Part shown: piece by piece, positions 1 to 58,132 of the stretch
How the letters are laid out: each line of letters starts with the position of its first letter
Numbering within the stretch: the first letter of the stretch is position 1
From: Euglena gracilis
Lineage: Eukaryota
Assembly: GCA_039621445.1 (NCBI GenBank)
Contig: CP154954.1
Span: forward strand, 45,487,847-45,551,846
DNA: 64,000 bases
Direction: 5' to 3'
The notes under the pieces: generated by a model
What the model was told of the DNA's origin: nothing
The model's database searches: none
Seen by the model: the letters and a program-made list of their open reading frames with translations, nothing else
Program-made: the position numbers and the translations under genes

Positions 1-551
1 AGGTCAGCTGCGGTGGGAGAGCCATGTGATTTGGCTGGGCAATGTCTTGTGTCTCTCCGGGGTGATGCTAGATGTTGCGGGTCCTGTCCAACTTTGGTGC
101 AGCATCACCGCGGTCATTGCACAAAAAAAAACAGAAAAGAATGAAACATTTCAACAAGACTCGCGGAACCTAGCCACTCTTTCAAGGTAAATTTTGTCAC
201 TTCGTTGAAAACTTTTTAAATGGAAATCCTTCACGATGACAATAGAAGGACCCAAAAATCGGACGGAATTGTCAGAATTACAGCCGGCGCCCCTATTTTT
301 TGAAACGCTTTGACACATTCTTGAAACGTTTTGACAGAGCTTTTGAAATATTTTGACGGTATTCAGGAAACGTTTTGACAAGGTTTTTGGACGTTGCTGT
401 GCGCAAATTTTGAAATACTTTGACAAAATCTTTGAAATGTTTTGACAAAATCTTTCAAACAAATTTGACAAAATCTTTGAGACTTTTTGACAAATTTTTG
501 GTGCATTTCCATGTCATTATGTCATTGTATGGCCAATGTCTGTCCCGCAGG

Positions 552-3500
552 ATGCCTCGTCTGAGGTCCACCAATGTCCGCCGACCAAGGATTGCACCTG
601 CAGTGTTGCGTTCTTTCAAATTGTTTGTCATTGAGCATCCTGATCATACATCTCTTTAACCACCTTGAGAAGAGTTGCTTTTGGAATGTGCATGTGGCGG
701 GGATTCAAAGGAAGGTCCTGGAGGGGGATCTCATAAGGTCCTGGGACTTTCTCCTGGTTTGTAAAGGAGGGGGGGGATGGGAAGTTCCTGGCCTCCTTGG
801 GGGGAGGGCTTATGTTTGCCCTCCTGAAAAAGGCAGAAAAGGGTTCCAGGGAAAAAGGGCAGAATGTGCTCAAGCATGATTGCATTTCTTGTGTGCAACC
901 CATAGGCTGTTAATGAGAAGTCTGATCTCGATGCCAACCTGCGTGAGCTCATGTCACGATCCTCAATCAATGTTGGTTGAATTGTATTTTGTTGTACCTT
1001 CATTCAAAAGATAGATTTTTTGATCCGGTGATGGCTGGGGGTAAAAAGTGTTCAACTTTTTTCTGAATTGCAACCTTAAAACTAACACGGCATTCACCGT
1101 CTTTTTGGAAAGCCTCAAGGATTGCGAACTTCTTTTAAACATCCGTTAAAAAAATGACTTACTTTGAGCTTTCCTTCATTTGAAACTGTTTTCCCGCTGA
1201 TGCCGTCAACCCACAAAGGCCGTTGGCAATGAAGGTGGTTGTTCTTCAAAGACACCAACAGTGTGATCAGTGTGTCGCTTGCGTGCTGAATTAATTGAAT
1301 CTGGCTTTAGTGATCACTACCATGTTGCTGAACGTCCTGGATCTAAACGTGCAAGGAATTTGCTCATGGAATCGAGAGTCAAGAAGATCTTGACGCAAGA
1401 TTGTTCTCTTTCCCTTCGAGCCGTGAAGCGCCGTCTCAGGCGACGAGCAGAGCCTTTTCTCAGTTTTTTTTTTTTCGGACAGTTTTCATTTTGATTGGGT
1501 GAGTGGGGGGTAATCACCTCGTCTGAGCTAAAATTCAAATACACAGCGTTGTAGAGTTGAATATGAATTTTTTCTGAGAAATAAAATGGAATTATTACCG
1601 AATATTCAGATTTCCTTAATTGTTTTCCGAAAAATGAAATAGAACTATTTCCAAACTTTCAGTTTTCCTTAATTAATTGGCACTCAACAGATGACAACCA
1701 ATTGTCGATGAGACTTAGAGAGGGCCTGAGGTTGTTTCCACATCCTTGCATCTGAAAGGACCATCAGGAGGACGTTGAAAAATATGGGCTGGAGCAGGAA
1801 GCGTACATCTCGTGTTCCTGATGTTCGCAACTTGCAGGCAACCCTTTTTTGGATTTCAACTTTTTTTGTTTGTTTTCTGGGAACCAAAAAACGTGCTCAA
1901 CATTTTATTAACCAGCACAAAAAGAAGGGTTGTTGTCATCAAAACCTGGTTGCTCGAAAGCAGTTTGCAATTTGCATCTCTCCACTCAACAACAACCAAT
2001 TGCTTTATTTGGATGAAACCGGATTTAACCTTTGGACGATGCCATTGTTCGGCTGGTCTCCACTAAACCAGCGTGCAAATCAGTTGGTTACTTCACAGCG
2101 GGGATGCGTTTGCATCAACTCTTCTTACTTGTAGTAAGGTCACAATTTTTGATTTGGATTTCCGGTCAGCGTTGATGCAATTCCAACGTTTCAGTTCTTG
2201 TTGTTCTTCATCGGAATGGTGTGCTGTACACAATTTACAAAAAAGCCGTCAGACTGCTTTCCACTTACAATTCACAAACCCAAAAAGTTCTGATTACACC
2301 CCCCTCCCCCGACCGAAAGTGTCAATGTTGAGGGGTCACGGGATCAGCAACAAAGGTATGTGGAAGGCAGGCAGAAATGCTCAGCGTTTCATTGAATTTC
2401 TAAACGTTGTCCTCTTTCCTTGGATTGACGTACAGCCTGTTGTACAACGGCGTCTCATTCTGGAACACAGTTGTGCCATGTCTGCTAATGGAATCATTTT
2501 CACGATGACTTTTTTTTTCATTTGGCTCGTCCCATTCGCCTACCAGATTTTATTTCAAAACAAATTTTTGTTCCAACGGTTCGTGGTAAAAACACATGCA
2601 GCATTGGGCAAGGGTCAACCACAATTGTTTTAAACGGTGAAGTGCCATCGCTCACTCAAACTGTGGCACAAGGGTGATTCTGACAATGTCCGCTTCCACA
2701 AGACTGCAGCTGTGCGTGCCCTTTTTCCACATGCTGCATTGGATTTGGCGTACCTTCCCACATACTCTCCTCATTTGGGGAACTGTTTGTTTGTTGTCAA
2801 TGGAGCCAGGGGAGGTCGGCACACCCCTCCCCCCCCACCGACCCCCTCGCCATGCCATGTCAGGCCCGCCAAAGAAAATTTTCTTGGCAAACCCTCGCGC
2901 ACCCCTCCCCCCCCCATCCGGGACCCCTCGCCACGCCAAACCCCCCCTCCCCCCCCCCTAGCCGGACCCCTCGCCACGGCGTGCCGACCCCCCTAGGGAT
3001 TGCTCCCCCTCACTTACCATGCCCCCCTCCAAAAGGTCAAAATTTTTCTTTCGGCGCTTCGCACTGAAAATTTTTAGCAGTTTTGACCAAATTTTTGCCC
3101 AAAAAATGCCCGTCAATTTGGCCCTAAAAATGGCCAACTTTGATCGCACACCTGTAGAGGAGGGGGGTGTCCCGCCCACCCCCCCCCCTGCTAGCCCACA
3201 GGGAGGACTGGATCACCCTGCCCCTCCTTTCCTGATATTGAACCCTGGCCTACACCCCTCCTAAACGTCAGTGTTCTCATTTCTTCAGCCCCGTTGGCCT
3301 CAAGGAAAACAGAGGTCGGTGCGTGTCATTTTGCTCAGTATGTGGCAAAGGAGTTTCCCACGACCAGTTGAACGCAGTTGAACAATTATTCGGCGTGTTG
3401 AAGCACCGAGTGCGCTCACATCGACCACATCCCACAAACACCGCACAACTGACCAAGGTTTTTTTGCTGTGATTTGACGTTTTGAATAAACTTAGGGATG

Positions 3501-3747
3501 ATCAACTTTTTGTTGTGATGTGTGTGTTATTGCCGGTGTGTTAATTCGTTGAGTTGCAACCTTTCCACAACTTTCATAATTAGTAGGTGGTGTTCAATGT
3601 TCAAAATAGAAAGGGAAAAAAACTGTGGCATTGATGACCCTCATCAGATTGAAGCTCGATGAGCTGGGGGCTGAGCCGCTGTGGCCGTTCTTCAACAACA
3701 CGCGTGAGTGGCTCGATAAGGCCGCCCGCATGATAAAGTTCTTGTAA
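552..3747 (+). CDS. DD34E transposase, 11 exons, 358 aa (exons 552-645, 683-714, 906-964, 1269-1444, 1734-1835, 1938-2107, 2185-2250, 2376-2462, 2682-2772, 3366-3450, 3633-3747)
   Basis: Exons sum to 1077 nt with consistent phases. The spliced protein has an HTH (SLRAVKRRLRRRFHILASERTIRRTLKNMGWSRKR), LYLDETGFNL, QRGCNVSVLVVL, LILDNVRFHK and YLPTYSPQLNAVE, with 34 residues between the second D and the E. The ATG is preceded by an AG (tcccgcagg). The first two junctions are the least certain. Confidence 0.88.
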
Positions 3748-3776
3748 GGGTTCAGTCCTGTGTGATCTGTACAGTC

Positions 3777-4216
3777 ATGGGATTGCTCAGTTGTATCGCC
3801 TGCATTTTGGTGACGGTTTTAGCTGGAAAAGATTCTTGGATGTTTGTGTGAAACAGAAAAAATTGTTGCACATATTTGCACACCACACTGTCCAGTCCTG
3901 TCATCTGTCCTCACATTTCAACTGCTGGCAATTCGTACAAAAGGCACAAATTTTACTTTGCATTATGGGTGTTCTTTTGCAAGTGTTTGGGAGAAAGCAA
4001 ATCATCACCAAAAGCATTGCGGCGTGGGACACGGAAGTCATCCCACACTTGAAACGCAGATTTGGCATGGCCATCTCTGCGTGGCTTGAAAGATACATAC
4101 CCATGTACATCCTCTGAGCTCATATTTTTATGTTCCTATGAAGCCACTGGAGATACATGGGCATGTGATTGAATCACATTGACACATGCTGCAAGTGGTT
4201 TTTCAGTTTATTTTGA
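3777..4216 (+). CDS. Putative second small ORF inside the transposon (91 aa after removing 3842-3877, 3935-3984, 4093-4170), unknown function
   Basis: AG at 3773-3774 then ATG. Three stem-forming segments in the same +4/-6 register splice to one open frame, MGLLSCIACILVTVLAGKDSW...KQIITKSIAAWDTEVIPHLKRRFGMAISAWLERNHIDTCCKWFFSLF*. Confidence 0.4.
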
Positions 4217-6420
4217 TCAATTCAACATCCCTGGAAAGGCGCTCCTGCATTTCACTTTCATCAGTTCCATCCACCATTTCACATTTTTGTTCATTGTTGC
4301 AGTCTATTTTAAGATTAACATCCTGTAGCACAATGAACGCGACTCTTCCTCCCATTCCACCAATGACAAAATCCACCCCCCCCCTCAAAAATGTGGATGC
4401 TCAAAAATCGCGCCCACAATGGATCAAAGATTGTGTCCAGAACGCTCCAAAGATTTTGTCAAAATATTTCTGGAATTGGTCAAAATCTTCCTAAAATTTT
4501 GTCAAAAAAATCCAAAGATCTTGTCAAAAAATTTCAAGAATCGAGTCAAAGTCATGTCAAAGATTTTGTCATTCTTGACTCAAGAATACGGGCGTTAGCT
4601 GTAGTCAAAAAAAAATGGCAAAATTGTGTGTACCATGCCCCCCCCCCCTCCCGAGCTATTCCCATAGGGGGGGGGGGACGGGAATAGCTGTCATTGCACT
4701 TTTCACCAAGGAATTCCCCAAAAAGTTGTCAAAAATCGACGTTTTTGGGACGTTTTCAGAAATCACTTTTTGGCAAATGTGTTTTTCGGGGGTTCGCGAC
4801 TATGAAGGACGGGGCCCAGGTGGCCAATTAGGGGGGGTAACCCCCCCCTAATTGTCCCCCCCCCTTATTGGCCAGAAGGGGGGTCCGGGCCGCCCGGGGG
4901 GTCACGTTATTGGTGTTGGTAATCGTAATCCTGAAAAAAGCCCAGGGGGGTCCCGATAAAACCCGATATATTGACCCCCCCGGTATCCTCGATAAATCCG
5001 ATAAATTCGATGTGGAGATGGGAAAAAAAAGACCCAAGTACCATGCCCCCCCCCCCCGAGCTATTCCCGTCCCTGGGACCCTTTACGGCCCAATGGGAAC
5101 AGTACGGGGGGGGACAGCTTGGGGGGGGGGCCTAGGTCCCCCTGTTGCGAGTGGGGAATTCATTAGGTTGTATCAAATGCTGCCGGTTTCATCTGACGGC
5201 TGGTGCAATGCCATCTGCCGCCTCAACGAGCAGAAGCACGGGGGAGGGGGTGTTGGCTGGGACCACCAACCGCCGCCTGAGGGACAGTGGAATTCAAGAT
5301 TGTTACCCACATGACGCAGCCATGCGCCATCTGCTATAAACTGATCACCCCTAACTTCATCTCCTCTAAAGTACAAGTCATTTATACACCCCTTTGAGCA
5401 AGGATGGACATTGATAACCGTGACCCCCCCCTATTTGTCCCCCCCCCTAATTGGCCAGAGCCCAGGTGGCCAATTAGGGGGGGGGGTCCCCATGTGTATT
5501 AACCCTAGTTGGGCGGCTCTTTGGGGTAGCAGGTACCTTGTAGGGGCCAATTTATCACGTTTCTGAACAGCCGGCTGTAGTCCTCAAAAGCCGGGGCTTA
5601 AAAGTTCACAAAGGGGGGGATTGCGAGAAAATGGTGGTCGGCCCGACCGTGGTAAGGGGTGGGGGGTTACTCATTTCAAGGGAAAATGCATTTATTCGGG
5701 TGCCTAAAATTGACCCTTTTTTGCGAACGTCCAAAAAAGTTGCCAAAAATGACCCCTTTTGGGTTGCCCGAGGGTCGGGTATGGGAATTGGCAGTGAAGC
5801 GTGTGTTGTGGGGATGGAGGGAGGCAAAAAAAGCCCTGCAGACGAATGGGTGACACTGCATAGTCTGGGGTTCGGCATGTCTGACGAGGACCCTCGGCCA
5901 CCAGGGGGGGGGGTCTCCATTTTGCCGTGCCGAGGGGGGGTCCACCGTGGCGGACAGCCTGAATTTCCCAAAGGAAAATTCATTGGTATGGTTCGGCACA
6001 TGCTGTGAGGGGGGGTCAGCTGACGGGGGGGGGGGTCCCATTTTGCCGTGCCGAGGGGGTCCGACCACCTGGGGGGGGGTTGCCAAACCTCCCATGGTGC
6101 GCTATAGAGGCAGCAATTTTTTTTCTGGAACTCCACCCACGGTCGTGGTGTGTGGCAACCGCGCCTCCCAATGATGACCCCTTGCATGCAAACAATATCC
6201 TTGTAGTTCTTTGCGACCACAAGCAAACCGTCGTCTTGGCAACCACGGTTGAACAGTCACCTTGGCTTTCCATTGCTCTCTTGGTTTTACTTTTAGAAAA
6301 CCAGCAGGAAAATGTAACCAGCCTAGGCATGTCCAGGAGGCATCAATGTAGCATTCATCCCCTCTAGATGCACTGGCGCTTTCCAAGTGATGGATTTTGT
6401 GGTGGACAGGCCTTTCTACA

Positions 6421-6536
6421 CACAAATTGTGGCTGAGTCCAGATTTCATCCTGAAAACGTGTTCAGGAGGGGGCCCCCGAAGGGGGCCCCCTGAACACGT
6501 TTTCAGGCTGAAATCTGGGCTCAGCCACAAATTTGT
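6421..6536. repeat. ~115 bp foldback hairpin / MITE (second copy ~27926-28041)
   Basis: ACAAATTGTGGCTGAGTCCAGATTTCATCCTGAAAACGTGTTCAGG is inverted at CCTGAACACGTTTTCAGGCTGAAATCTGGGCTCAGCCACAAATTTGT. Confidence 0.85.
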
Positions 6537-8605
6537 TTAAAAACGTGTTCAGAGCCCGCCAAATGCCTGCCCTGAAATTCGTGGTCATGATTCACGCAAG
6601 GGGTCAAAAACGCGAAAATGTGAAGTTCGGACCCCAAAAAACAGCGCCCTAATGGAAAACGTGCCAGACCACAAATGCCTTAATGGAAAACGTGTCATTG
6701 CCACAGATGCATTAATGGAAAACGTGCCTGACCACAGATGTCTTAATGGAAAACGTGTCATTGCCACAAATGCCCTCACTGAAAACGTGTCACCCCCCCC
6801 CCTTTTTCCGCAGCCCTCCTATTATGGCTAAACACACGGCAAACTTTGTGAATGGTCTTTTGATGCCAAGGAGCGGGGGGGGGGAAATGTGTGTCGCATT
6901 TTTTCGCATTTTTGCGTTTTTTTTTGCGCATTTTCTGGATTTTTGGGAAAATGCGCATTTTTGCGCATTTTTTCGCATTTTTTGTGCAATTTTTCGATTT
7001 TTTCGCGCATTTTTTCGATTTTTTGCGCATTTTTCGATTTTTTTCGCGCATTTTTTTGCATCTTAAGAATTTCCGGCTTTTTTTTAACATGTTGCAGTTT
7101 CATTTTGGTTTTTTTTATTTTGATTGTGTATTATCAAATTGCTCTTTGACCAATGTTGCATTGATGCTGAGTTATGTTGTTTGATTTGCGCTCTGTTCGG
7201 CTTTTTGCGCATTTTTTGCATTTTCCCACCTTTTTTTTCACTTTTTGGAGGCATTTTGTCCATATTCAAGAAAAAAGCTTTGGGTGATGAGGTGTGGGTG
7301 TTCATCTAATGATGATGAGGACACTAGGGTTTTCAGAGACCCCGCATCGAATCCTACTCCCCTGGTCACAAGTAAGAAGCACCATGGCTGACATTGTTGG
7401 TTATGGTGAACAGAGAGTGACGCCTTGCTGATGCATTTTTTTTTGGCCAAAAATGCCTTCATTTCAGCTGTTTTTGGTGATTTTGGTTTAATTTTGGGCT
7501 CATTGTTGGAAATTTTCTAAGTCCTTTTTCTCTTAGGAATGTACAAACTCAGCGCATTTTTTGCGCATTTTTTTTGCGCATTTTTTGCACATATTTGCGC
7601 ATTTTTGCGAGGGCCACCCAGCGCATCCCCCCCCCCCCCTGCAAGAAGCCGAAGGTTGACCCCCTTGCTGGCACAGGGCAACACGAAGAAAAAGTCTGGC
7701 TCCGTAGGTGCAGAGCTTGCTGCTGTTGCCAACTGTTTGGAGTTCGCCAAACTGTGTCAACATCGGCAAGCCTCTTATCCTGAGTTGGATGCTTTCTTTG
7801 TTGCCTGGACGGGATGGGAGCTGGAATCCAGCCTCCCATCAGCAGCTCATCATCAGCTACGGCGCGGAACGTTGCTCGGTGGTCAACTTGGGCAAATTTT
7901 TGCGCCCCGCCAAGTGAGGAACACTCGGTCGAAAATCAGGACCTGACTGATGTTCCGTCTGTGTTTCCCACCGCCGAGCAACGTTCCGCTCCTGCTGTCA
8001 GCAGCTCCGTAGCGCCTCCCTCCCCTGACCAACCCCCTGTGCCTCGTGCTGTGTCCCGACTGCCTATAAAACAGGAGAAATGTGGTTTTTGTGGTGTTGC
8101 CATTCCCAAAAATCCAAATTGTGTGGAGCTGAACAAAGTTGTGTGTGACGCCTGCGGTTTGGAATATCATTTTCATTGCCAAGATTTGCGGTGGCCACCA
8201 AAGCATGGCTCTTTTTTGTGTAAATCGTGTCGTGTTCCGTGATGTCCGCCACTCCGTGTCGGAGTGCTCCAAGGCAACGTCTAGCCTTCTGTTGTGTTGT
8301 AGAGTGCCCCCGACCCGCCTCACTCATTGAGGACCACCTCGGCCTCTCAACTGCTCACCGATTTTTCGTGATAGCGATTTTTGCTTCTTGCTCGGGGTTG
8401 CCACAGATGCCTTAATGGAAAACGTGCCTGACCATAAATGCCTTAATGGAAAACGTGTCATTGCCACAGATGCCTTAATGGAAAACGTGCCTGACCACAG
8501 ATGCCTTAATGGAAAACGTGTCATTGCCACAAATGCCCTCATGGAAAACGTGTTCATGACCATGAATTTCAGGGCAGGCATTTGGCGGGCTGAACACGTT
8601 TTTAA
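6537..8605. mobile_element. TTAA-bounded TIR element (Kolobok-like TTAA|RR termini) carrying a PHD-finger ORF
   Basis: TTAA-AAACGTGTTCAGAGCCCGCCAAATGCCTGCCCTGAAATTCGTGGTCATGA ... TCATGACCATGAATTTCAGGGCAGGCATTTGGCGGGCTGAACACGTTT-TTAA. There are 31-32 bp subterminal tandem repeats (TAATGGAAAACGTG core) at ~6648-6790 and ~8400-8555. Confidence 0.75.
7814..8242 (+). pseudogene. PHD zinc finger (C4HC3) ORF fragment in transposon, probably frameshifted from the upstream segment
   Basis: CGFC...VVCDACGLEYHFHC...FLCKSC at 8081-8230. The upstream frame (KSGSVGAELAAVANCLEF...HQLRR) needs a frameshift near 7862 to join it. Confidence 0.7.
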
Positions 8606-8755
8606 GGTTTGCCGTCGGTTACTTTTATGTTTCTTGGCGGGGTACCATGCCCCCTATATAAGACCCCCCCTCGGGAGCCAAAGTCCCAGGGGGGGTCTTA
8701 TTTGGGGGGGCATGGTACCCCGCCAAGAAACATAAAAGTTACCGACGGCAACCTT
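8604..8755. mobile_element. Foldback MITE (second copy ~30273-30425)
   Basis: AAGGTTTGCCGTCGGTTACTTTTATGTTTCTTGGCGGGGTACCATGCCCCC is inverted at GGGGGCATGGTACCCCGCCAAGAAACATAAAAGTTACCGACGGCAACCTT. Confidence 0.85.
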
Positions 8756-8839
8756 GAAACCTTGAACCCGGCCAAAGGGACGGCCTTCGGCCGGCCAGGG
8801 GGGGGGGTCTTATATGGGGGGGATGGTAACCAAATTGCT

Positions 8840-9370
8840 TCGATCAAACCGTGGGTCACCCCTTCTCGCTGTGACGTTGTCTCGTGGGTGTTAGATGCCT
8901 GGGAACAACTGCCCGTAAACGTGTTGGAGAAAGGCATGACGAAGCATGTCCTTGTCCCAGCAACCACAAACCCCAACCTGCCTGCACCTGACATTCCCCT
9001 GCCACCTGTTCCATCCCAAATAGATGAGGTATTGGCAACACTCTCGAACTTGGCCTTACCCCATGAGGCTGGGGAAGAAGAGCAACGCCAAGATGATGCA
9101 ATGGATATGGGTGGCCAAGATACACCAAGGGGGTCCCGGGGGACCCACTCAAAGACAGGTCTCCCAATTGGCACCACAACATGGCAGATGTAGTTGTCAT
9201 AGTGTCCACAATGGAAAGCAGTCTCCTGCACCTTCTCCTGGCGTATATTGTCTGTGAAACACCAAAATACAGAGAACATGAAGTTGGCACGGGGTATGTG
9301 TCATTGAATGCTGTGACATGTGCAATGTACCATGGAGAAAATGGCATTTTGGGCATGGGAGAAGTGCGGT
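8840..9370 (+). pseudogene. Pogo/DDE_1-type transposase C-terminal remnant followed by a decayed PHD-like segment (second copy ~30500-31030)
   Basis: TPSRCDVVSWVLDAWEQLPVNVLEKGMTK resembles the pogo-family PSRxxVxxWVxxAWxxI helix. Downstream GVYCL* and VIECCDMCNVPWRKWHFG are PHD-like. Confidence 0.55.
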
Positions 9371-10155
9371 TGACACAAGGTGTGTTTCACGGACCAACCT
9401 GTCAAACACAAGGGGGGGGGGGTAGCTTTCGTCAATGCATATCACGTCAGTATGTCAAAGCACACCCAACTCCTAGAAAGCCCTCTCCCCCGTAAGCAGT
9501 TAATTGGTGCCTGTTTGTCCGACAGCATTAATGGCAATAGAAAGATCGGTTGGTTGGTACAAGAATTATGCAGCAGTTTGCTTTCTCGTTGTAGAATGCT
9601 CTTTAAAGCAAATGGATGTGCGGGTGGGTGGGTTTATCGGGAAGCAGCTGTGGTGAATGCTTTGGGCCGTCTCTTTCTCTTTCTTAGCCCATCGACAGGG
9701 ATGGCCTTTTTGGGGGTTTTTTTCTTCTTCAAAAAAAAAAAAACAACAAGAAGTGCTTTTGTTGGTTTCAAAAAAACCACTGTCCATTTTTTTTTGGATT
9801 TGGAATTCGCGGCGGGGCATATGGTTGTTTTTTTTTTTTTTTTTTTTTTATTCGCTTCTTTCTTTTTTTTTTTTTTTTTTTTTTTTTTTCCATCTGGTTG
9901 TCTCCTAATGAGAGTTGAGGATCCTGGGAGACGCTGGTTCTGTCCTGAACCCGAACGCCGGTTTAATGCCAAAAAAAATCATGTGTGCTGAAAGGGGCCT
10001 GGCCTGAGCGAGCCGAAACACAGGCGTTCAACCATCTTGCAGAACAATTTTTATGAAGTCCTACAATTCAAGGATCACCTCCATTGCATAGACGTTGCTT
10101 GACCACCTGAAAATTCAAGCCTCGTATACTTCTTTCTGGCTTGCCAGGTATCAGA

Positions 10156-10282: not shown

Positions 10283-10354
10283 CGTACATGGTGGGAGTCG
10301 AACCCACGACCTCGTACTTGTGAAACGAGCGCTTTACCGCTAAGCTACATGTGT
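10283..10354 (-). tRNA. tRNA-like gene, Val(CAC)-like, probably pseudogene or SINE head
   Basis: Reverse complement ACACATGTAGCTTAGCGGTAAAGCGCTCGTTTCACAAGTACGAGGTCGTGGGTTCGACTCCCACCATGTAC. D- and T-arms are intact, the acceptor stem pairs 5/7, and the anticodon stem pairs poorly in canonical register. Confidence 0.6.
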
Positions 10355-26356: not shown

Positions 26357-29300
26357 TGTCCCCCCCCCTTATTGGCCAGAAGGGGGGTCCGGGCCGCCCG
26401 GGGGGTCACGTTATTGGTGTTGGTAATCGTAATCCTGAAAAAAGCCCAGGGGGGTCCCGATAAAACCCGATATATTGACCCCCCCGGTATCCTCGATAAA
26501 TCCGATAAATTCGATGTGGAGATGGGAAAAAAAAGACCCAAGTACCATGCCCCCCCCCCCCGAGCTATTCCCGTCCCTGGGACCCTTTACGGCCCAATGG
26601 GAACAGTACGGGGGGGGACAGCTTGGGGGGGGGGCCTAGGTCCCCCTGTTGCGAGTGGGGAATTCATTAGGTTGTATCAAATGCTGCCGGTTTCATCTGA
26701 CGGCTGGTGCAATGCCATCTGCCGCCTCAACGAGCAGAAGCACGGGGGAGGGGGTGTTGGCTGGGACCACCAACCGCCGCCTGAGGGACAGTGGAATTCA
26801 AGATTGTTACCCACATGACGCAGCCATGCGCCATCTGCTATAAACTGATCACCCCTAACTTCATCTCCTCTAAAGTACAAGTCATTTATACACCCCTTTG
26901 AGCAAGGATGGACATTGATAACCGTGACCCCCCCCTATTTGTCCCCCCCCCTAATTGGCCAGAGCCCAGGTGGCCAATTAGGGGGGGGGGTCCCCATGTG
27001 TATTAACCCTAGTTGGGCGGCTCTTTGGGGTAGCAGGTACCTTGTAGGGGCCAATTTATCACGTTTCTGAACAGCCGGCTGTAGTCCTCAAAAGCCGGGG
27101 CTTAAAAGTTCACAAAGGGGGGGATTGCGAGAAAATGGTGGTCGGCCCGACCGTGGTAAGGGGTGGGGGGTTACTCATTTCAAGGGAAAATGCATTTATT
27201 CGGGTGCCTAAAATTGACCCTTTTTTGCGAACGTCCAAAAAAGTTGCCAAAAATGACCCCTTTTGGGTTGCCCGAGGGTCGGGTATGGGAATTGGCAGTG
27301 AAGCGTGTGTTGTGGGGATGGAGGGAGGCAAAAAAAGCCCTGCAGACGAATGGGTGACACTGCATAGTCTGGGGTTCGGCATGTCTGACGAGGACCCTCG
27401 GCCACCAGGGGGGGGGGTCTCCATTTTGCCGTGCCGAGGGGGGGTCCACCGTGGCGGACAGCCTGAATTTCCCAAAGGAAAATTCATTGGTATGGTTCGG
27501 CACATGCTGTGAGGGGGGTCAGCTGACGGGGTGGGGGGTCCCATTTTGCCGTGCCGAGGGGGTCCGACCACCTGGGGGGGGGTTGCCAAACCTCCCATGG
27601 TGCGCTATAGAGGCAGCAATTTTTTTTCTGGAACTCCACCCACGGTCGTGGTGTGTGGCAACCGCGCCTCCCAATGATGACCCCTTGCATGCAAACAATA
27701 TCCTTGTAGTTCTTTGCGACCACAAGCAAACCGTCGTCTTGGCAACCACGGTTGAACACAGTCACCTTGGCTTTCCATTGCTCTCTTGGTTTTACTTTTA
27801 GAAAACCAGCAGGAAAATGTAACCAGCCTAGGCATGTCCAGGAGGCATCAATGTAGCATTCATCCCCTCTAGATGCACTGGCGCTTTCCAAGTGATGGAT
27901 TTTGTGGTGGACAGGCCTTTCTACACACAAATTGTGGCTGAGTCCAGATTTCATCCTGAAAACGTGTTCAGGAGGGGGCCCCCGAAGGGGGCCCCCTGAA
28001 CACGTTTTCAGGCTGAAATCTGGGCTCAGCCACAAATTTGTTTAAAAACGTGTTCAGAGCCCGCCAAATGCCTGCCCTGAAATTCGTGGTCATGATTCAC
28101 GCAAGGGGTCAAAAACGCGAAAATGTGAAGTTCGGACCCCAAAAAACAGCGCCCTAATGGAAAACGTGCCAGACCACAAATGCCTTAATGGAAAACGTGT
28201 CATTGCCACAGATGCATTAATGGAAAACGTGCCTGACCACAGATGTCTTAATGGAAAACGTGTCATTGCCACAAATGCCCTCACTGAAAACGTGTCACCC
28301 CCCCCCCCTTTTTCCGCAGCCCTCCTATTATGGCTAAACACACGGCAAACTTTGTGAATGGTCTTTTGATGCCAAGGAGCGGGGGGGGGGAAATGTGTGT
28401 CGCATTTTTTCGCATTTTTGCGTTTTTTTTTGCGCATTTTCTGGATTTTTGGGAAAATGCGCATTTTTTTGTTTTTTTTGCGCATTTTTTTTTTTTATCT
28501 TTTTCTTTTTTTTTGTTTTTTTGTTTTTTCTCTTTTTTTTTTTTTTTTTTCGCATTTTTTTTGCAATTTTTGCGCGGCATTTTTTGTTTTTTTTTGCATT
28601 TTTTTTGTTGCAATTTTATTTTTCGCTTTCGCGCATTTTTTCGAATTTTTTTTTTCTTTTTTTTTCCGCGCATTTTTTTTTTTTTTTATTTTTTTTTTTT
28701 TTCGATTTTTTTCGCGCATTTTTTTGCATCTTAAGAATTTCCGGCTTTTTTTTAACATGTTGCAGTTTCATTTTGGTTTTTTTTATTTTGATTGTGTATT
28801 ATCAAATTGCTCTTTGACCAATGTTGCATTGATGCTGAGTTATGTTGTTTGATTTGCGCTCTGTTCGGCTTTTTGCGCATTTTTTGCATTTTCCCACCTT
28901 TTTTTTCACTTTTTGGAGGCATTTTGTCCATATTCAAGAAAAAAGCTTTGGGTGATGAGGTGTGGGTGTTCATCTAATGATGATGAGGACACTAGGGTTT
29001 TCAGAGACCCCGCATCGAATCCTACTCCCCTGGTCACAAGTAAGAAGCACCATGGCTGACATTGTTGGTTATGGTGAACAGAGAGTGACGCCTTGCTGAT
29101 GCATTTTTTTTTGGCCAAAAATGCCTTCATTTCAGCTGTTTTTGGTGATTTTGGTTTAATTTTGGGCTCATTGTTGGAAATTTTCTAAGTCCTTTTTCTC
29201 TTAGGAATGTACAAACTCAGCGCATTTTTTGCGCATTTTTTTTGCGCATTTTTTGCACATATTTGCGCATTTTTGCGAGGGCCACCCAGCGCATCCCCCC

Positions 29301-31481
29301 CCCCCCCTGCAAGAAGCCGAAGGTTGACCCCCTTGCTGGCACAGGGCAACACGAAGAAAAAGTCTGGCTCCGTAGGTGCAGAGCTTGCTGCTGTTGCCAA
29401 CTGTTTGGAGTTCGCCAAACTGTGTCAACATCGGCAAGCCTCTTATCCTGAGTTGGATGCTTTCTTTGTTGCCTGGACGGGATGGGAGCTGGAATCCAGC
29501 CTCCCATCAGCAGCTCATCATCAGCTACGGCGCGGAACGTTGCTCGGTGGTCAACTTGGGCAAATTTTTGCGCCCCGCCAAGTGAGGAACACTCGGTCGA
29601 AAATCAGGACCTGACTGATGTTCCGTCTGTGTTTCCCACCGCCGAGCAACGTTCCGCTCCTGCTGTCAGCAGCTCCGTAGCGCCTCCCTCCCCTGACCAA
29701 CCCCCTGTGCCTCGTGCTGTGTCCCGACTGCCTATAAAACAGGAGAAATGTGGTTTTTGTGGTGTTGCCATTCCCAAAAATCCAAATTGTGTGGAGCTGA
29801 ACAAAGTTGTGTGTGACGCCTGCGGTTTGGAATATCATTTTCATTGCCAAGATTTGCGGTGGCCACCAAAGCATGGCTCTTTTTTGTGTAAATCGTGTCG
29901 TGTTCCGTGATGTCCGCCACTCCGTGTCGGAGTGCTCCAAGGCAACGTCTAGCCTTCTGTTGTGTTGTAGAGTGCCCCCGACCCGCCTCACTCATTGAGG
30001 ACCACCTCGGCCTCTCAACTGCTCACCGATTTTTCGTGATAGCGATTTTTGCTTCTTGCTCGGGGTTGCCACAGATGCCTTAATGGAAAACGTGCCTGAC
30101 CATAAATGCCTTAATGGAAAACGTGTCATTGCCACAGATGCCTTAATGGAAAACGTGCCTGACCACAGATGCCTTAATGGAAAACGTGTCATTGCCACAA
30201 ATGCCCTCATGGAAAACGTGTTCATGACCATGAATTTCAGGGCAGGCATTTGGCGGGCTGAACACGTTTTTTAAGGTTTGCCGTCGGTTACTTTTATGTT
30301 TCTTGGCGGGGTACCATGCCCCCCTATATAAGACCCCCCCTCGGGAGCCAAAGTCCCAGGGGGGGTCTTATTTGGGGGGGCATGGTACCCCGCCAAGAAA
30401 CATAAAAGTTACCGACGGCAACCTTGAAACCTTGAACCCGGCCAAAGGGACGGCCTTCGGCCGGCCAGGGGGGGGGGTCTTATATGGGGGGGATGGTAAC
30501 CAAATTGCTTCGATCAAACCGTGGGTCACCCCTTCTCGCTGTGACGTTGTCTCGTGGGTGTTAGATGCCTGGGAACAACTGCCCGTAAACGTGTTGGAGA
30601 AAGGCATGACGAAGCATGTCCTTGTCCCAGCAACCACAAACCCCAACCTGCCTGCACCTGACATTCCCCTGCCACCTGTTCCATCCCAAATAGATGAGGT
30701 ATTGGCAACACTCTCGAACTTGGCCTTACCCAATGAGGCTGGGGAAGAAGAGCAACGCCAAGATGATGCAATGGATATGGGTGGCCAAGATACACCAAGG
30801 GGGTCCCGGGGGACCCACTCAAAGACAGGTCTCCCAATTGGCACCACAACATGGCAGATGTAGTTGTCATAGTGTCCACAATGGAAAGCAGTCTCCTGCA
30901 CCTTCTCCTGGCGTATATTGTCTGTGAAACACCAAAATACAGAGAAGAAGTTGGCACGGGGTATGTGTCATTGAATGCTGTGACATGTGCAATGTACCAT
31001 GGAGAAAATGGCATTTTGGGCATGGGAGAAGTGCGGTTGACACAAGGTGTGTTTCACGGACCAACCTGTCAAACACAAGGGGGGGGGTAGCTTTCGTCAA
31101 TGCATATCACGTCAGTATGTCAAAGCACACCCAACTCCTAGAAAGCCCTCTCCCCCGTAAGCAATTAATTGGTGCCTGTTTGTCCGACAGCATTAATGGC
31201 AATAGAAAGATCGGTTGGTTGGTACAAGAATTATGCAGCAGTTTGCTTTCTCGTTGTAGAATGCTCTTTAAAGCAAATGGATGTGCGGGTGGGTGGGTTT
31301 ATCGGGCAGCAGCTGTGGTGAATGCTTTGGGCCATCTCTTCTTAGCCCATCGATAGGGATGGTGATATGGGGGGTTTTTTTCTTTTTCAAAAAAAAGCAA
31401 CAACAAGTGCTTTTGTTGGTTTCAAAAAATCCACCGTCCATTTTTTTTTTGGATTTGGAATCGCGGCATCTGGTTGTCTCC
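26357..31481. repeat. ~5 kb composite repeat, copy 2 (TTAA element 28042-30274; PHD ORF 29482-29910)
   Basis: Near-identical to 4853-9906 except for small indels and a poly-T-expanded tract at ~28465-28700. Confidence 0.95.
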
Positions 31482-45262: not shown

Positions 45263-47757
45263 AGGCTCCAGGGAGGCTCCAGGGAGGCTCCAGGGAGGCT
45301 CCAGGGAGGCTTAGGTAACCAGCCTCCCTGGAGCCTCCTTTTTAGGGAGCCTCCAGGAGGCTCCAGGGAGGCTCCAGGGAGGCTCAGGTAACCAGCCTCC
45401 AGGGAGGCTCCCTTTTAGGGAGCCTCCAGGAGGCTCCAGGGAGGCTCCAGGGAGGCTCAGGTAACCAGCCTCCCTGGAGGCTCCAGGGAGGCTCGGGTTA
45501 CCAGTTTTGTGCACAGGCCGACAATGGGAGAAGTCGTGGGCCGTGATGCAATCGGTGGTGTTGTTGACTCGAAATGCATGAATCAGCAGTTACTCGCCGG
45601 GGATGTGACATGGGATAATGCAGGCACGGCGAGGCACAAGAAGAAGAGACGTGAAACATCTGGACAACGTCTGCATCTTGAATAGCATTCAATCTTGTCC
45701 GGTGTCTGAATCTTGTCCAATGTCAACGTCTTGTCCAGTATTTGCATATTGTGTGGTCTCTGCACCTTGTCCAGCATGTACATCTTGTCCAACATCTGCA
45801 TCTCGTCCAATATGTGCATCCACTGCATCTTGTCCAGCATATGCATCTTGTCCAGCATCCGCATCTTGTCCAGCATCTGCAACCACTGCATGTTGTCCAA
45901 CATCTGCATCTTTTCCAACATCTACAACCAATACATCTTGTCTAGCATTTGCATGTTGTCCAAGGAACTGTGATTGAAGCTCTGCGAACTGGTCTGCAGC
46001 AGGAAAATTTCTGGTGTTGTTGTTCTGGAGTTCTGAGATTTGCTTTTTGGCTAATTTCAACATCTGCATCTTGTCCAACATCTGCGTCCACGACATCTTG
46101 TCCAGCGTCTGCATCTTATCCAGTGTCCACATTTTGTCGAGCATCTGCATCTCGTCCAGCATCTGCAACCACTGCATCTTGTCCATCATCTGCATCTTGT
46201 CCAACAGCTGCATTTTGTCCAGCATCTGCATCTTGTCCAGCATCTCCGTCCACTGCATTTTGTCCAACATCTGCATCTTGTCCAGCATCTGCATCCACGA
46301 CATCTTGTCCAGCATCTGCATCTTGTGCAACATTTGCATTTTGTCTAGCATCTGCATCTCATCTAGTATCTGCGTCCACGACATCTTGTCCTGCATCTGC
46401 ATCTTGTCCAGCGTCTGCATTTTGTCCAGCATCTGCATCTCGTCCAGTGCCTGCGTCCACTGCATTTTGTCCAGCATCTGCATCTTGTCCAGCATCTGCG
46501 TCCACGACATGTTGTCCTGCATCTGCATCTTGTCCGGCGTCTGCATTTTGTCCAGCATCTGCATCTCGTCCAGCATCTGCAACCACTGCATCTTGTCCGG
46601 CGTTTGCATCTTGTCCAGCGTCTGCATTTCGTCCAGCATCTGCATCTTGTCCAGCATCTACGTGCACGACATCTTGTCCAGCTGCATCCTGTCCAGCGTC
46701 TGCATTTTGTCCAGCATCTGCATCTCGTCCAGTATCTCCGTCCACTGCATTTTGTCCAGCATCTGCATCTTGTCCAGCATCTCCGTCCACTGCATTTTGT
46801 CCAACATCTGCATCTTGTCCAGCATCTGCATCCACGACATCTTGTCCAGCATCTGCATCTTGTGCAGCGTTTGCATTTTGTCTAGCATCTGCATCTCGTC
46901 TAGGATCTACGTCCACGACATCTTGTCCTGCATCTGCATCTTGTACAGCGTCTGTATTTTGACCCAAATTAGCCCATTATTTGCCCAAATCAATGCAAAT
47001 TAGCCGAAATTAGCAAACAAAACAAAACCATTTTGCAAAAAAAGCCAAGATGGGTGAAATGGGAGGCTGGGAGGCAACATAGAGCTTAATTGAAGCCAAA
47101 AATGACTTTATTCGGCCAGAATTGTACCTAATTATTTGCCGTGCAAAAAAAAGGGTCATGTGAAATCCAAAGTGGTGTTTGTTTGGCTGTGCCCGGGGGG
47201 GAGGGGGGAGGGGGGAGGCGGGAGGGGGGAGGGGGGCGGGGGGCCCCCCGCCCCCCCCCCCCGCCCCCCTCCCCCCCCCCCCCCTCCCCCCCACCCCCCC
47301 CCCACCCCCTTCCCCTCCCCCCCTCCCCCCTCCCCTGCTCCCTAATAACAACATCCTTTTGTGTGGACAAAATTTGGCGGACAAAGCGTAAATAGCAAAC
47401 GGGTAAACGGTAAAAGCAAATTCAGGCGGACATGGCGTCTTTGTGGCGAATGGACAAATGGTTTTCAATTCTTTCTGCAATTGGCGGGGCATGGCATAAA
47501 TAGCAAACAAACAAACGTCATTTGTGTGTGTAAATATATAACGGATGCAAAGATGGAGGGTTGAACATGGCCTGTGTACAAAATTGGTTACCTGCCGGAG
47601 GCTCCAGGAGGCTCCAGGGAGGCTCCAGGAGGCTCCTCAGGCAACCAGCCTCCATGGAGGCTCCTTTTTAGGGAGCCTCCAGGAGGCTCCAGGGAGGCTC
47701 CAGGGAGGCTCAGGTAACCAGCCTCCCTGGAGCCTCCCTGGAGGCTCCAGGTAACCA
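45263..47757. mobile_element. Element with complex (GGAGGCTCCAG)n termini and inner inverted repeat, enclosing an 18-bp minisatellite
   Basis: GGAGGCTCCAG/GTAACCAGCCTCC arrays lie at 45263-45497 and 47590-47757. TTACCAGTTTTGTGCACAGGCC (45498-45519) is inverted at GGCCTGTGTACAAAATTGGTTA (47569-47590). Confidence 0.7.
45655..46960. repeat. 18-bp minisatellite (GCATCTTGTCCAGCATCT) with 27-bp variants, interrupted by ~95 bp of unique sequence at ~45965-46058
   Basis: Direct reading. It produces long repetitive ORFs (MQMLDK, DADAGQ, ICILSS, ASCPAS frames). Confidence 0.95.
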
Positions 47758-57800: not shown

Positions 57801-58132
57801 CCGGATATGTCCCACGGGGTGGTTGTTGCAGGCGCTTTTGGCCCCGGCAGGAACGTGGAGGGTCGAAATCGGTCCAGAATGTGGCCTAACTTCTCCCTAA
57901 ATTCCTAAAAAATTGCAACCTCCAGAAATTCGGTAAGAACCTTAACCCTATCCCGAACAATAACCCCAACTTCCCCAAAAGTGGGACCTGGGCCACCATA
58001 CAACCCCCCCCCTGCCTACAACTATAGGCCCCCCCCCCGGGGGCCAATACCCTCACCCCCCCTATTTGGCTTATGGCCGGGCCCCTTCAGACCCCCAATT
58101 AGCCAATTGGGGGGGGGGGACAATTAAGGGGG

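Follow-up and report, generated by a model that had tools for sequence, protein, structure and literature searches.

Structure of the locus

The analyzed window comprised 64 kb of DNA from Euglena gracilis. At positions 281–4601, it contains a probable DNA transposon copy of about 4.3 kb with one gene inside. This transposase gene consists of 11 exons and 10 introns, nine of which are nonconventional and one of which has GT-AG ends. The features are listed below in window coordinates; a caret marks borders, Y^R is pyrimidine followed by purine, and differences in bits refer to alternative GT/GC-AG borders.

279–280, no strand: TA flanking the left end, candidate target-site duplication (TA^CAGC at 279–284)
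281–505, + strand: left terminal inverted repeat, which includes a 22-bp repeat array (TRF 405–494)
549–551, + strand: possible spliced-leader acceptor, AG after a pyrimidine-rich run and before the ATG, read from sequence
552–645, + strand: exon 1, ATG at 552; copies differ at two synonymous positions and one conservative position
646–682, + strand: intron 1, nonconventional, 37 nt, not slidable, helix 8/9, Y^R at both borders
683–714, + strand: exon 2, aligns with helix 2 of the first HTH of homologues; weakly supported
715–905, + strand: intron 2, conventional GT-AG, 3′ end uncertain, in-frame AG also at 946–947
906–964, + strand: exon 3, first 39–42 nt doubtful
965–1268, + strand: intron 3, nonconventional, helix 8/9; GT-AG alternative −3.5 bits
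1269–1444, + strand: exon 4, putative HTH region
1445–1733, + strand: intron 4, nonconventional, strict N3-CAG...CTG-N5^R code; alternatives −7.1 to −9.9 bits
1734–1835, + strand: exon 5, putative winged HTH; matches to Pfam HTH_33 (E = 2e-4) and positions 93–118 of the NCBIfam IS630 profile
1836–1937, + strand: intron 5, nonconventional, in frame, stop-free, helix 9/9
1938–2107, + strand: exon 6, first catalytic D (residue 180); Pfam DDE_3 profile 1–34
2108–2184, + strand: intron 6, nonconventional, helix 9/9, fold z = −3.6
2185–2250, + strand: exon 7, three synonymous differences between copies
2251–2375, + strand: intron 7, nonconventional, fits the code (CTG...CAG)
2376–2462, + strand: exon 8, aligned with homologues and compared between copies
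2463–2681, + strand: intron 8, nonconventional; alternative −13.9 bits
2682–2772, + strand: exon 9, second catalytic D (residue 263); Pfam DDE_3 profile 86–117 (E = 2e-5)
2773–3365, + strand: intron 9, nonconventional, helix 9/9; alternatives −9.3 to −14.7 bits
3366–3450, + strand: exon 10, catalytic E (residue 298)
3451–3632, + strand: intron 10, nonconventional; alternatives −4.7 and −8.5 bits
3633–3747, + strand: exon 11 and stop codon, TAA (TGA in another copy)
3748–4389, + strand: non-coding tail from the stop codon to the right inverted repeat
4390–4601, − strand: right terminal inverted repeat, which includes a 22-bp repeat array (TRF 4446–4571)
4602–4603, no strand: TA flanking the right end (GCTG^TA at 4598–4603 mirrors the left TA^CAGC)

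Joining of the eleven exons resulted in 1077 nt, i.e., 358 codons plus the TAA, with no internal stop. The original prediction had obtained a stop-free protein of 358 amino acids by removing ten segments, nine of them without GT-AG ends and one (715–905) with such ends, and all of this could be reproduced. It had also expected the gene to be hidden from ordinary gene finders, and indeed none of the open frames extends beyond one or two exons, so standard annotation of Euglena genomes will miss transposases of this kind. A spliced leader may be added at the AG before the ATG. Intron 9 holds a C-rich repeat of very high copy number (about 2786–3293), which reached a depth of up to 146,705 in the DNA set X1.

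The inverted ends have a length of about 225 bp each, and both contain 22-bp direct repeats (TRF period 22 × 4.1 in the left array). Global alignment of 279–510 with the reverse complement of 4376–4603 revealed 153 identities at 205 positions and a score of 132, compared to 21.8 ± 7.5 for shuffled sequences (maximum 46) and 44 for the direct orientation. The terminal six bases and the repeated 16-mer cores are alike in both arms. When up to two mismatches were allowed, eight matches to the 16-mer were found in the window, with a chance expectation of 0.27: three in the left arm (+), four in the right arm (−), and a weak one in intron 9. The 64-kb window does not hold a second copy, and searches of the window with a scripted empty site and with the two 18-nt ends gave no further match. 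As no empty site was found in the window, we only infer a TA duplication at the ends. The open frame at 3740–4114 in the tail did not match any Pfam family, and Pfam yielded nothing credible for the ten longest open frames of the window and three frames beside the element; therefore, no neighbouring host gene was available for comparison. A different high-copy repeat starts at about 4247 in the tail, and a 5-kb segmental duplication in the window starts only 250 bp from the element.

The encoded protein

The predicted protein carries the catalytic residues D180, D263, and E298 with spacings of 82 and 34. The exact DD34E spacing that had been predicted was thus found between D263 and E298, and all three catalytic positions align with those of IS630 transposases. 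The D, D, and E residues are kept in 25, 25, and 23 of 25 homologues, respectively, and the spacing of 34 residues in 21 of 26 sequences. It is the removal of intron 9 that creates both this spacing and the motif YSPQLNAVE.

Several single exons matched transposase profiles. Exon 6 corresponds to positions 1–34 of Pfam DDE_3 (E = 0.06) and exon 9 to positions 86–117, each staying below the DDE_3 cut-off of 28.6 bits when taken alone. The matches to the NCBIfam IS630 profile (299 positions) are collinear, with exon 5 at 93–118, exon 6 at 139–178, and exon 9 at 230–260 (E = 6.5e-6 for the latter). Exon 5 reached 21.3 bits with HTH_33 (cut-off 25) and E = 0.05 with HTH_Tnp_Tc3_2. In the profile comparison proposed earlier, exons thus matched DDE_3 and HTH_33, with single exons staying below the cut-offs. 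The N-terminal region aligns with the HTH regions of homologues, except for an insertion of 11 residues in the first HTH.

A 134-aa open frame consisting of exon 5, the in-frame intron 5, and exon 6 was used as bait and retrieved 62 proteins at E ≤ 1e-3 among 1.84 billion. With the best homologue, the spliced protein scored 239.6 bits and the bait alone 63.3 bits. End-to-end alignment with the best uninterrupted homologue gave 130 identities at 343 positions, and the nearest relatives are 38% identical at best. All five full-length homologues that were tested passed Pfam DDE_3, with 99–119 bits. A search for longer homologous proteins with exon 6 gave no match, a sequence search of the PDB with the same exon gave chance-level matches only, a cyanobacterial plasmid searched for reference IS630 genes lacked a DDE_3 match, and two metagenome scans, one using the exon 6 peptide and one a two-repeat DNA pattern, yielded no hits. 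Based on the profile matches of single exons and the end-to-end homologues, the deduced protein is a DDE_3/IS630-Tc1-type DD34E transposase, as had been predicted.

Characteristics of the nonconventional introns

All nine introns without GT-AG ends had been predicted to form a stem that pairs position +4 onward with position −6 backward, and this was the case. In the register +4...+12/−6...−14, 74 of 81 positions pair (7–9 of 9 per intron), whereas 5000 random placements of the same lengths yielded 30.4 ± 4.7 pairs with 48 as the largest value, and a shift of one side by one base led to 36–43 pairs. Positions +4, +5, and +6 form three pairs with −8, −7, and −6 in six introns and two pairs in the other three. 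The GT-AG intron 2 shows no pairing in the +4/−6 register. Four short introns were folded with RNAfold, and all of them had the terminal helix in their minimum-energy structure. A pyrimidine-purine step is present at 8 of 9 5′ junctions and at 8 of 9 3′ junctions (background 0.22), and the downstream exon begins with a purine in all nine cases, although these junction statistics are partly helped by slidable borders. For eight of the nine introns, the borders can be slid by 1–3 nt without changing the mRNA, and therefore, the exact register is partly a choice. Non-canonical borders, an end-closing helix, and Y^R junctions are listed for euglenid nonconventional introns in PMC11282704 and PMC12501133. 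The register, the Y^R junctions, the slide, and the folds agree with these published hallmarks, and the assignment to this class made by the original prediction can be upheld.

The strict code N3-CDG...CH'G-N5-6^R is present in only two of the nine introns, 1445–1733 (CAG/CTG) and 2251–2375 (CTG/CAG). The other seven contain the trinucleotides CAA/TTG, TGC/GCA, CAC/GTG, TGG/CCA, CAT/TTG, or CAA/GTG. The CDG/CH'G trinucleotides were needed in knock-in tests, and the strict code covers 61.2% of the nonconventional introns of E. agilis, while 38.8% are without it (PMC12501133). Because of this latter fraction, a missing strict code is compatible with membership in the wider class. The lengths range from 37 to 593 nt. 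Only about 1% of the nonconventional introns of E. gracilis are shorter than 60 nt (PMC11170887), and intron 1 with its 37 nt is unusually short for the class. An origin of the introns as MITE copies of the element's own ends was considered and rejected, as they have no similarity to these ends; TA adjoins the stem in one of nine introns at the 5′ side and in none of nine at the 3′ side.

In E. gracilis, 57% of the introns are nonconventional; in E. agilis, with its roughly 12.6 introns per gene, the fraction is 71.8%. Since they are the majority class in Euglena, nine of ten is ordinary for the host. The view that the intron load is unusual thus holds for a Tc1/IS630 transposon, but not for a host gene; the unusual point is that a Tc1/IS630 transposon is the carrier of such a load.

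Homology and the positions of the splice borders

Stop-free in-frame GT/GC-AG alternatives exist within 20 nt of every intron. Therefore, the open frame alone is no proof of the borders, which were proved by homology. With a profile of 25 uninterrupted homologues, the model with nonconventional borders reached 312.9 bits. For introns 3–10, all 21 GT/GC-AG alternatives had lower scores, with losses from 3.5 bits to 22.9 bits; the two alternatives for intron 6 lost 19.8 and 22.9 bits. The homologues match in two stretches that skip intron 5, and none of the 25 has an indel at this junction. The comparison with homologous proteins thus shows the borders of introns 3–10 to lie at the nonconventional positions. 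Splicing of introns 3–10 exclusively at GT/GC-AG sites is ruled out by the profile scores; in the 5′ region, it may occur.

Exons 2 and 3 have uncertain borders. In 24 of 25 homologues, just two residues correspond to amino acids 43–55 at the start of exon 3; the resulting insertion of 11 residues falls in the turn of the first HTH. Because of this insertion, it is doubtful where the GT-AG intron ends; a model with 715–947 as intron 2 gained 0.7 bits on the homologue profile.

RNA evidence

No splice joints were listed for the RNA reads placed on the window, with a listing threshold of three reads. Coverage was very low, with 11 reads of run X21 (in about 5% of a 42-Gb run) and only three partly placed reads of run X24, which were uninformative. 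The screen for sequencing runs that contain the window yielded no RNA set, and 20 runs with partial matches (shares 0.06–0.27) were left out of the evidence. The 11 reads are in at least 18 non-contiguous pieces, and therefore, several of them must be split. The support from RNA consists of arithmetic on binned depths and involves about seven reads. The first_mate_on- depths of X21 (20 + 43 + 116 + 0 + 121) equal two 150-nt reads across exons 7, 8, and 9, which requires that 2251–2375 and 2463–2681 have been removed. The first_mate_on+ depths (18 + 29 + 43 + 58) equal one read that joins 3450 to 3633. Depth is zero in the bin 2532–2658 within intron 8, with covered exons on both sides, and all purely intronic bins have zero RNA depth, except for the repeat in intron 9. 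The values disagree with the GT-AG alternatives 2475/2672 and 3466/3647. They fit with removal of introns 7, 8, and 10 from the RNA at the nonconventional borders, and presumably all ten introns are spliced. In two RNA reads from a variant copy, some 19 nt of intron 7 appear to be present, which may represent retention or another border.

Other copies and selection

The element had been predicted to carry its introns around the genome. In X1 and X7, DNA contigs with 1–8 differences from the window cross exon/intron borders in the unspliced form, the variant contigs spanning 1694–1867, 1990–2128, 2023–2150, 2066–2208 (an X7 contig that contains intron 6), 2312–2434, and 3490–3645. At least introns 4–7 and 10 are therefore common to other copies, and the position of intron 4 is also interrupted in the relative P0022. 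No intron-less joint was seen in the DNA reads. Exon 6 is represented by at least three haplotypes in X1, and the variant contigs are 95–99% identical; they might also be alleles or segmental duplicates. Two variant haplotypes are frameshifted in exon 6 (+1 after 2040 and −2 at 2053), and thus, part of the family is dead.

Between the copies, 25 exonic differences were found, 18 synonymous and 7 non-synonymous, although just 33% would be expected to be synonymous (P = 7e-5). Seventeen of the 25 are at codon position 3. In the other two frames, only 7 of 24 and 3 of 25 differences would be synonymous. As judged from these copies, the spliced frame is shown to be under purifying selection.

Interpretation

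We consider it likely that 281–4601 is a copy of an IS630/Tc1/mariner transposon, the transposase of which depends on nonconventional splicing by the host. The helix from +4 and −6 would draw the intron ends together, and nine introns would be removed by a non-spliceosomal (or non-canonical) host pathway and one as a conventional GT-AG intron. Production of a working transposase would require prior removal of all ten introns by the host. Its putative N-terminal HTH domains would probably bind to the 22-bp repeats, which are predicted binding sites, and every DNA copy made by the element would take the introns along. We infer that the transposase binds these repeats, that TA is duplicated, and that the element is mobile today. 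The original prediction of a possibly autonomous transposon is supported in that the gene lies in a transposon-like element with TA^CAG...CTG^TA ends and long inverted repeats.

A structurally intact but immobile copy of an inactive family, which is spliced and may lead to a protein, is conceivable, but rather unlikely. The identity of the arms of 75% could be too low for transposition, the copies differ by 1–5% with frameshifts in some of them, and RNA coverage is very low. However, IR/DR-type Tc1 elements normally have long degenerate arms in which the internal repeats are conserved, the terminal six bases and the 16-mer cores were kept in both arms, and the selection signal indicates function during the divergence of the copies. 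Strong purifying selection could also be explained by a domesticated, host-co-opted family of transposase genes, the copies of which would be paralogues or alleles that have arisen by duplication instead of transposition. The intron load would then be due to a long stay as an ordinary Euglena gene. The segmental duplication close to the element is in line with this, and the gene resembles host genes in how many introns it has and of which type (PMC12501133, section 5). We nevertheless regard it as improbable, because the DDE triad with its 34-residue spacing is intact and some haplotypes are frameshifted. Furthermore, domesticated transposases normally lose their terminal repeats, whereas the long inverted ends, TA^CAG...CTG^TA, and the 22-bp motifs on both sides were all kept here.

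It is extremely improbable that the copy is a decayed relic in which the segments are inactivating insertions, the open frame is an artefact of the cut points, and no functional mRNA is formed. The stop-free alternatives around every intron show how easily open frames can be obtained, and no RNA joint reached the threshold of three reads. In contrast, the homologues retrieved with the two-exon bait validated the other exons, all comparisons for introns 3–10 favoured the exact nonconventional borders, the excess of synonymous differences is specific for the spliced frame, the helix register is far outside of chance, and the RNA depth pattern is impossible with contiguous reads. A further idea arises because the ends TA^CAG...CTG^TA share the CAG/CTG trinucleotides of the splicing code: such elements could be the autonomous partners of MITE-like insertions that turned into euglenid nonconventional introns. 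We believe this to be very improbable. If it were true, a transposase that needs nonconventional splicing would be locked into a feedback loop with that pathway, and the presence or absence of introns among diverged relatives would be a dated record of intron gain, for which the uninterrupted relatives P0001 and P0002 and the interrupted P0022 would be candidates.

With regard to the preferred reading, a transposon dependent on host nonconventional splicing, the gene structure itself would be no surprise to a Euglena specialist because most Euglena introns are nonconventional. Beyond the original prediction, the gene was found to lie inside an element bounded by TA^CAG...CTG^TA with inverted ends of about 225 bp. 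The element would show that a cut-and-paste transposon can persist in a euglenid genome, gain a host-like load of nonconventional introns, and still have a transposase under selection. From numerous copies of known relative age with the same nonconventional introns, rates of gain, loss, and slide could be measured. The family would also show which sequence variants are still spliced, as seven of the nine introns are without the published code. A transposon tied to lineage-specific splicing would not function after transfer out of the lineage, and this limit would be unusual for a superfamily known for horizontal transfer.

Comparison with known systems

The element shares with the DD34E group of IS630/Tc1/mariner the DDE_3 domain, the D-D-E residues with a spacing of 34, putative N-terminal HTH domains, the TA beside CAG...CTG termini, the long inverted ends, and the internal direct repeats. 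Its motif LPTYSPQLNAVE matches LPPYSPELNPIE of IS630. The transposase is 27–30% identical over 139–151 amino acids to three annotated IS630 transposases, which were retrieved by tblastn with exon 9 against plasmids. For the NCBIfam IS630 equivalog model, the single exons sum up to 50.7 bits, below its cut-off of 100, and therefore, the element is not a bacterial-type IS630. Tc1/IS630 genes have zero or few introns, unlike the gene described here with its ten introns.

The nonconventional intron class is, to our knowledge, known only from euglenids and diplonemids. The non-canonical borders, the +4/−6 helix, the Y^R junctions, the purine at the start of the downstream exon, the slide of 0–3 nt, and the lengths of 37–593 nt of the element's introns agree with tubA/tubB and genome-wide sets of euglenid introns (PMC11282704, PMC12501133, and PMC11170887). 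However, tubA/tubB and the E. agilis and E. gracilis sets are introns of host genes, whereas the introns analyzed here are in a transposon gene. In the literature on Euglena transposase, mariner, Tc1, or TcMar together with introns, no such element was found; the supplementary catalogues of the genome papers may list it. The Merlin transposons of Euglena gracilis are likewise cut-and-paste elements with inverted ends (PMC8101967). Their superfamily is a different one, and the text of that article does not contain the word "intron".

With respect to the dependence on host splicing, plant transposons of the CACTA, Mutator, and hAT types are similar, although they belong to other superfamilies. 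Their transposases are encoded by multi-intron genes, but with ordinary spliceosomal GT-AG introns. A link between mobile DNA and the spread of introns is also provided by introners, which are transposon-derived introns (PMC11282704), and a MITE origin of nonconventional introns has been put forward as a hypothesis in PMC11282704 and in the Discussion of PMC12501133. In the case of introners, the mobile element becomes an intron, whereas here, the introns ride inside the element and are not copies of its ends.

Exon model of the transposase gene

The original prediction interpreted 552-3747 as eleven exons and ten introns, nine of them without GT-AG borders. This model was reproduced. The ten segments lie at the predicted coordinates, nine lack GT-AG and 715-905 carries it, and the eleven joined pieces comprise 1077 nt, i.e., 358 codons and a TAA stop codon, with no internal stops.

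Exons 1-11: 552-645, 683-714, 906-964, 1269-1444, 1734-1835, 1938-2107, 2185-2250, 2376-2462, 2682-2772, 3366-3450, 3633-3747
Introns 1-10: 646-682, 715-905 (GT-AG), 965-1268, 1445-1733, 1836-1937, 2108-2184, 2251-2375, 2463-2681, 2773-3365, 3451-3632

For every intron, in-frame, stop-free GT/GC-AG alternatives exist at most 20 nt away, and therefore, the open frame alone is weak evidence here. Most of the question was settled by four independent tests, namely single-exon profiles, homologues, border scoring, and differences between copies. Single exons matched profiles in collinear order, and the spacings of the NCBIfam matches agree with the spliced model to 0-3 residues.

Profile matches of single exons
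Exon 5: Pfam HTH_33
Exon 6: Pfam DDE_3, profile positions 1-34
Exon 9: Pfam DDE_3, profile positions 86-117
Exons 5, 6, and 9: NCBIfam IS630, positions 93-118, 139-178, and 230-260 of 299

Homologues were retrieved with a stop-free frame of the window (1730-2131), which spans exons 5 and 6 together with the in-frame intron 5 between them. Among 1.84 billion proteins, 62 matched at E <= 1e-3, mostly in two stretches omitting intron 5. The best homologue scored 63.3 bits with this bait alone versus 239.6 bits with the full, script-built spliced protein, to which it aligned end to end (130/343 identical). None of 25 homologues has an indel at or up to two residues from the junctions that follow residues 154, 211, 233, and 262, and one of 25 has an indel at the junctions at residues 292 and 320. 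Two homologous predicted proteins, P0001 and P0002, run without interruption across the junctions corresponding to introns 4 and 5. On a profile of the 25 uninterrupted homologues the spliced model reached 312.9 bits, and all 21 GT/GC-AG alternatives for introns 3-10 scored lower, by 3.5 to 22.9 bits.

The 5′ end is the weak part of the model. The borders of introns 1 and 2 are not discriminated by homology, and intron 1 comprises only 37 nt. Exon 3 begins with 11-13 residues that form an insertion within the first helix-turn-helix relative to 24 of the 25 homologues; an in-frame AG at 946-947 would drop them (+0.7 bits).

Identity of the protein

The residues D180, D263, and E298 are spaced by 82 and 34, so that the predicted DD34E spacing is exact. 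They are conserved in 25/25, 25/25, and 23/25 homologues, respectively; of 26 sequences, 21 have 34 residues between the second D and the E. All five full-length homologues tested exceed the cut-off of Pfam DDE_3 (99-119 bits), and Tc3-type HTH matches are present in several of them. A tblastn search of plasmids with exon 9 yielded 509 records (E = 0.06-1); among the 15 listed, eight are annotated under the match, all as IS630 family transposase. The spliced protein is 27-30% identical to three plasmid IS630 transposases over 139-151 residues, across four exon junctions. By its catalytic spacing, its DDE_3 homologues, and the IS630 plasmid matches, the predicted protein belongs to the DD34E group of the IS630/Tc1/mariner superfamily. 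Because its exons sum to 50.7 bits versus an equivalog cut-off of 100, it is no bacterial-type IS630 transposase. Its closest relatives are unnamed proteins encoded on contigs 1.2-2.4 kb in length.

Nonconventional introns and their predicted removal from RNA

The predicted pairing from +4 inward with -6 inward was found in all nine non-GT-AG introns (74 of 81 positions, 7-9 of 9 in each), compared with 30.4 +/- 4.7 for segments of equal length placed at random in the window (largest value 48, n=5000). Moving one side alone by one base lowered the pairing to 36-43 of 81, and the GT-AG intron 715-905 has no such pairing. The terminal helix was part of the minimum-energy structure in each of the four short introns folded with RNAfold. 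Pyrimidine|purine junctions occur at 8/9 5′ borders and 8/9 3′ borders (background 0.22), and the first base of the downstream exon is a purine in 9/9; both features, which the original prediction had not used, also fit. In eight of the nine introns the borders can be slid by 1-3 nt without changing the mRNA, which is usual for Euglena because 84.4% of its introns are slidable (PMC12501133).

Predicted splicing was compared with the RNA run X21, of which about 5% was covered, yielding 11 mapped reads. None of the splice joints reached the threshold of three reads in this sample; the depth pattern, however, fits removal of introns 7, 8, and 10. The binned depths cannot stem from contiguous reads, since at least 18 separate pieces arose from 11 reads. 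On one strand, successive bins of 20, 43, 116, 0, and 121 bases correspond to two 150-nt reads, which fit exon 7|8|9 after excision of 2251-2375 and 2463-2681. The opposite strand has 18+29+43+58 bases, corresponding to one read that joins 3450 to 3633. Two alternatives do not fit, i.e., the GT-AG pair 2475/2672, which predicts 140 in the third bin versus 116 observed, and 3466/3647, which misfits the depths on the other strand. Purely intronic bins had zero depth, with the exception of the high-copy repeat in intron 9, and about 19 nt of intron 7 seem to be present in two reads from a variant copy. The removal of introns 7, 8, and 10 from RNA thus has indirect support, and no more.

Other genomic copies and selection

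In the DNA runs X1 and X7, contigs that show 1-8 differences to the window extend across exon/intron borders unbroken.

Spans of unbroken variant contigs
1694-1867
1990-2128
2023-2150
2066-2208
2312-2434
3490-3645

Therefore, at least introns 4, 5, 6, 7, and 10 are common to diverged copies, and no joint indicating an intron-less DNA copy was seen in the reads of X1 and X7. The predicted protein P0022 (contig of 1,652 nt) matches exon 5 only in its last 32 residues (75% identity); upstream of these, the sole similarity is to exon 4 DNA, out of frame. P0022 probably represents a genomic-DNA open frame of a diverged relative with introns 4 and 5 at the same places.

The window and the contigs of X1 and X7 show 25 exonic differences, 17 of them at codon position 3. 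In the spliced frame 18 of 25 are synonymous, including a TAA>TGA stop, compared with an expectation of 33% given 22 transitions and 3 transversions (P = 7e-5); in the other two frames, 7/24 and 3/25 are synonymous. Exon 6 has at least three haplotypes in X1, two of them frameshifted (+1 after 2040, -2 at 2053), and its summed depth, which does not equal copy number, is about tenfold the depth of contigs that match perfectly.

Whole contigs in both DNA runs (296 and 299 nt, 0 differences) span 963-1261 and nearly coincide with intron 3 (965-1268), which suggests that the flanking exons branch into other copies and that the window's intron 3 version is specific to one copy. In X18, a run labelled with another organism, 0.16 of the sampled words of 552-3747 were found; a related species or strain may carry part of the element, which is only a lead.

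Ends of the element and its neighbourhood

The predicted coordinates comprise the coding region only. The 64 kb contain eight occurrences of the 16-mer TTTGACAAAATCTTTG (at most 2 mismatches), versus 0.27 expected by chance, and the flanking matches lie within arrays of 22-bp repeats.

Occurrences of the 16-mer
Left of the gene: 3, + strand
Right of the gene: 4, - strand
Intron 9: 1 weak match

When 279-510 is aligned with 4376-4603 in reverse complement, 153 of 205 positions are identical (score 132; shuffled sequences, 21.8 +/- 7.5; direct orientation, 44), and both arms start with TACAGC. The inverted arms and these starts thus delimit a unit at 281-4601. Directly 5′ of the ATG, an AG at 549-550 follows a pyrimidine run and could be a spliced-leader acceptor.

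Further features of the window
2786-3293: C-rich repeat in intron 9, a nested very high-copy element (contig depths in X1 sum to as much as 146,705, versus about 40-50 for perfect-match contigs), with several internal breakpoints (2840, 2941, 2993, 3171)
4247-4300: immediately left of 4247 the X1/X7 contigs diverge from the window, with depth leaping to 4,709 in X1; either another abundant repeat starts at about 4247, or an internally deleted derivative shares the element's right part
4853-9813 and 26357-31467: segmentally duplicated sequence of about 5 kb (98.4-99.5% identity); the first copy starts 250 bp right of the transposon end, and the transposon lies outside the duplication
10283-10354 (-): tRNA gene; no other Rfam match in the window reached the gathering score
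17263-17821, 46058-46961, 58132-63951: tandem/dispersed repeat blocks (78-93% identity)

The region 17.1-17.9 kb is of low complexity, because all six frames are open there. No credible Pfam family was found in the window's 10 longest open frames and 3 element-adjacent frames.

Comparison with known elements and introns

Taken together, the observation and the interpretation of the original prediction were both supported and extended. The element is a structurally complete Tc1/IS630-type transposon, the transposase gene of which has acquired an intron architecture like that of the euglenid host and is still under purifying selection. With one gene, TA-adjoining CAG...CTG termini, and inverted ends that are about 225 bp long and contain internal direct repeats, the unit 281-4601 has the anatomy of a Tc1-like element.

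For euglenid nonconventional introns, a helix of +4..+6 with -8..-6, Y|R junctions, TSD-like slidable borders, and a hypothesis of MITE origin have been described (PMC11282704). PMC12501133 lists 703,976 introns in 55,727 genes of E. agilis and 71.8% nonconventional ones among 649,158 introns; for E. gracilis, PMC11170887 gives 16,151 of 28,337. By these proportions, a ten-intron gene with nine nonconventional introns is therefore ordinary for the host. The genetically defined code N3-CDG...CH'G-N5-6|R, found in 61.2% of the E. agilis nonconventional introns (PMC12501133), occurs in only 2 of the 9 introns here.

For E. gracilis, PMC8101967 reports DNA transposons belonging to the Merlin superfamily. 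In the article texts searched for Euglena transposase/mariner/Tc1/TcMar and introns, no description of a transposase gene with nonconventional introns was found. In summary, the intron class itself is not surprising in this genome; within the reach of these searches, its occurrence in a Tc1/IS630 element is new.
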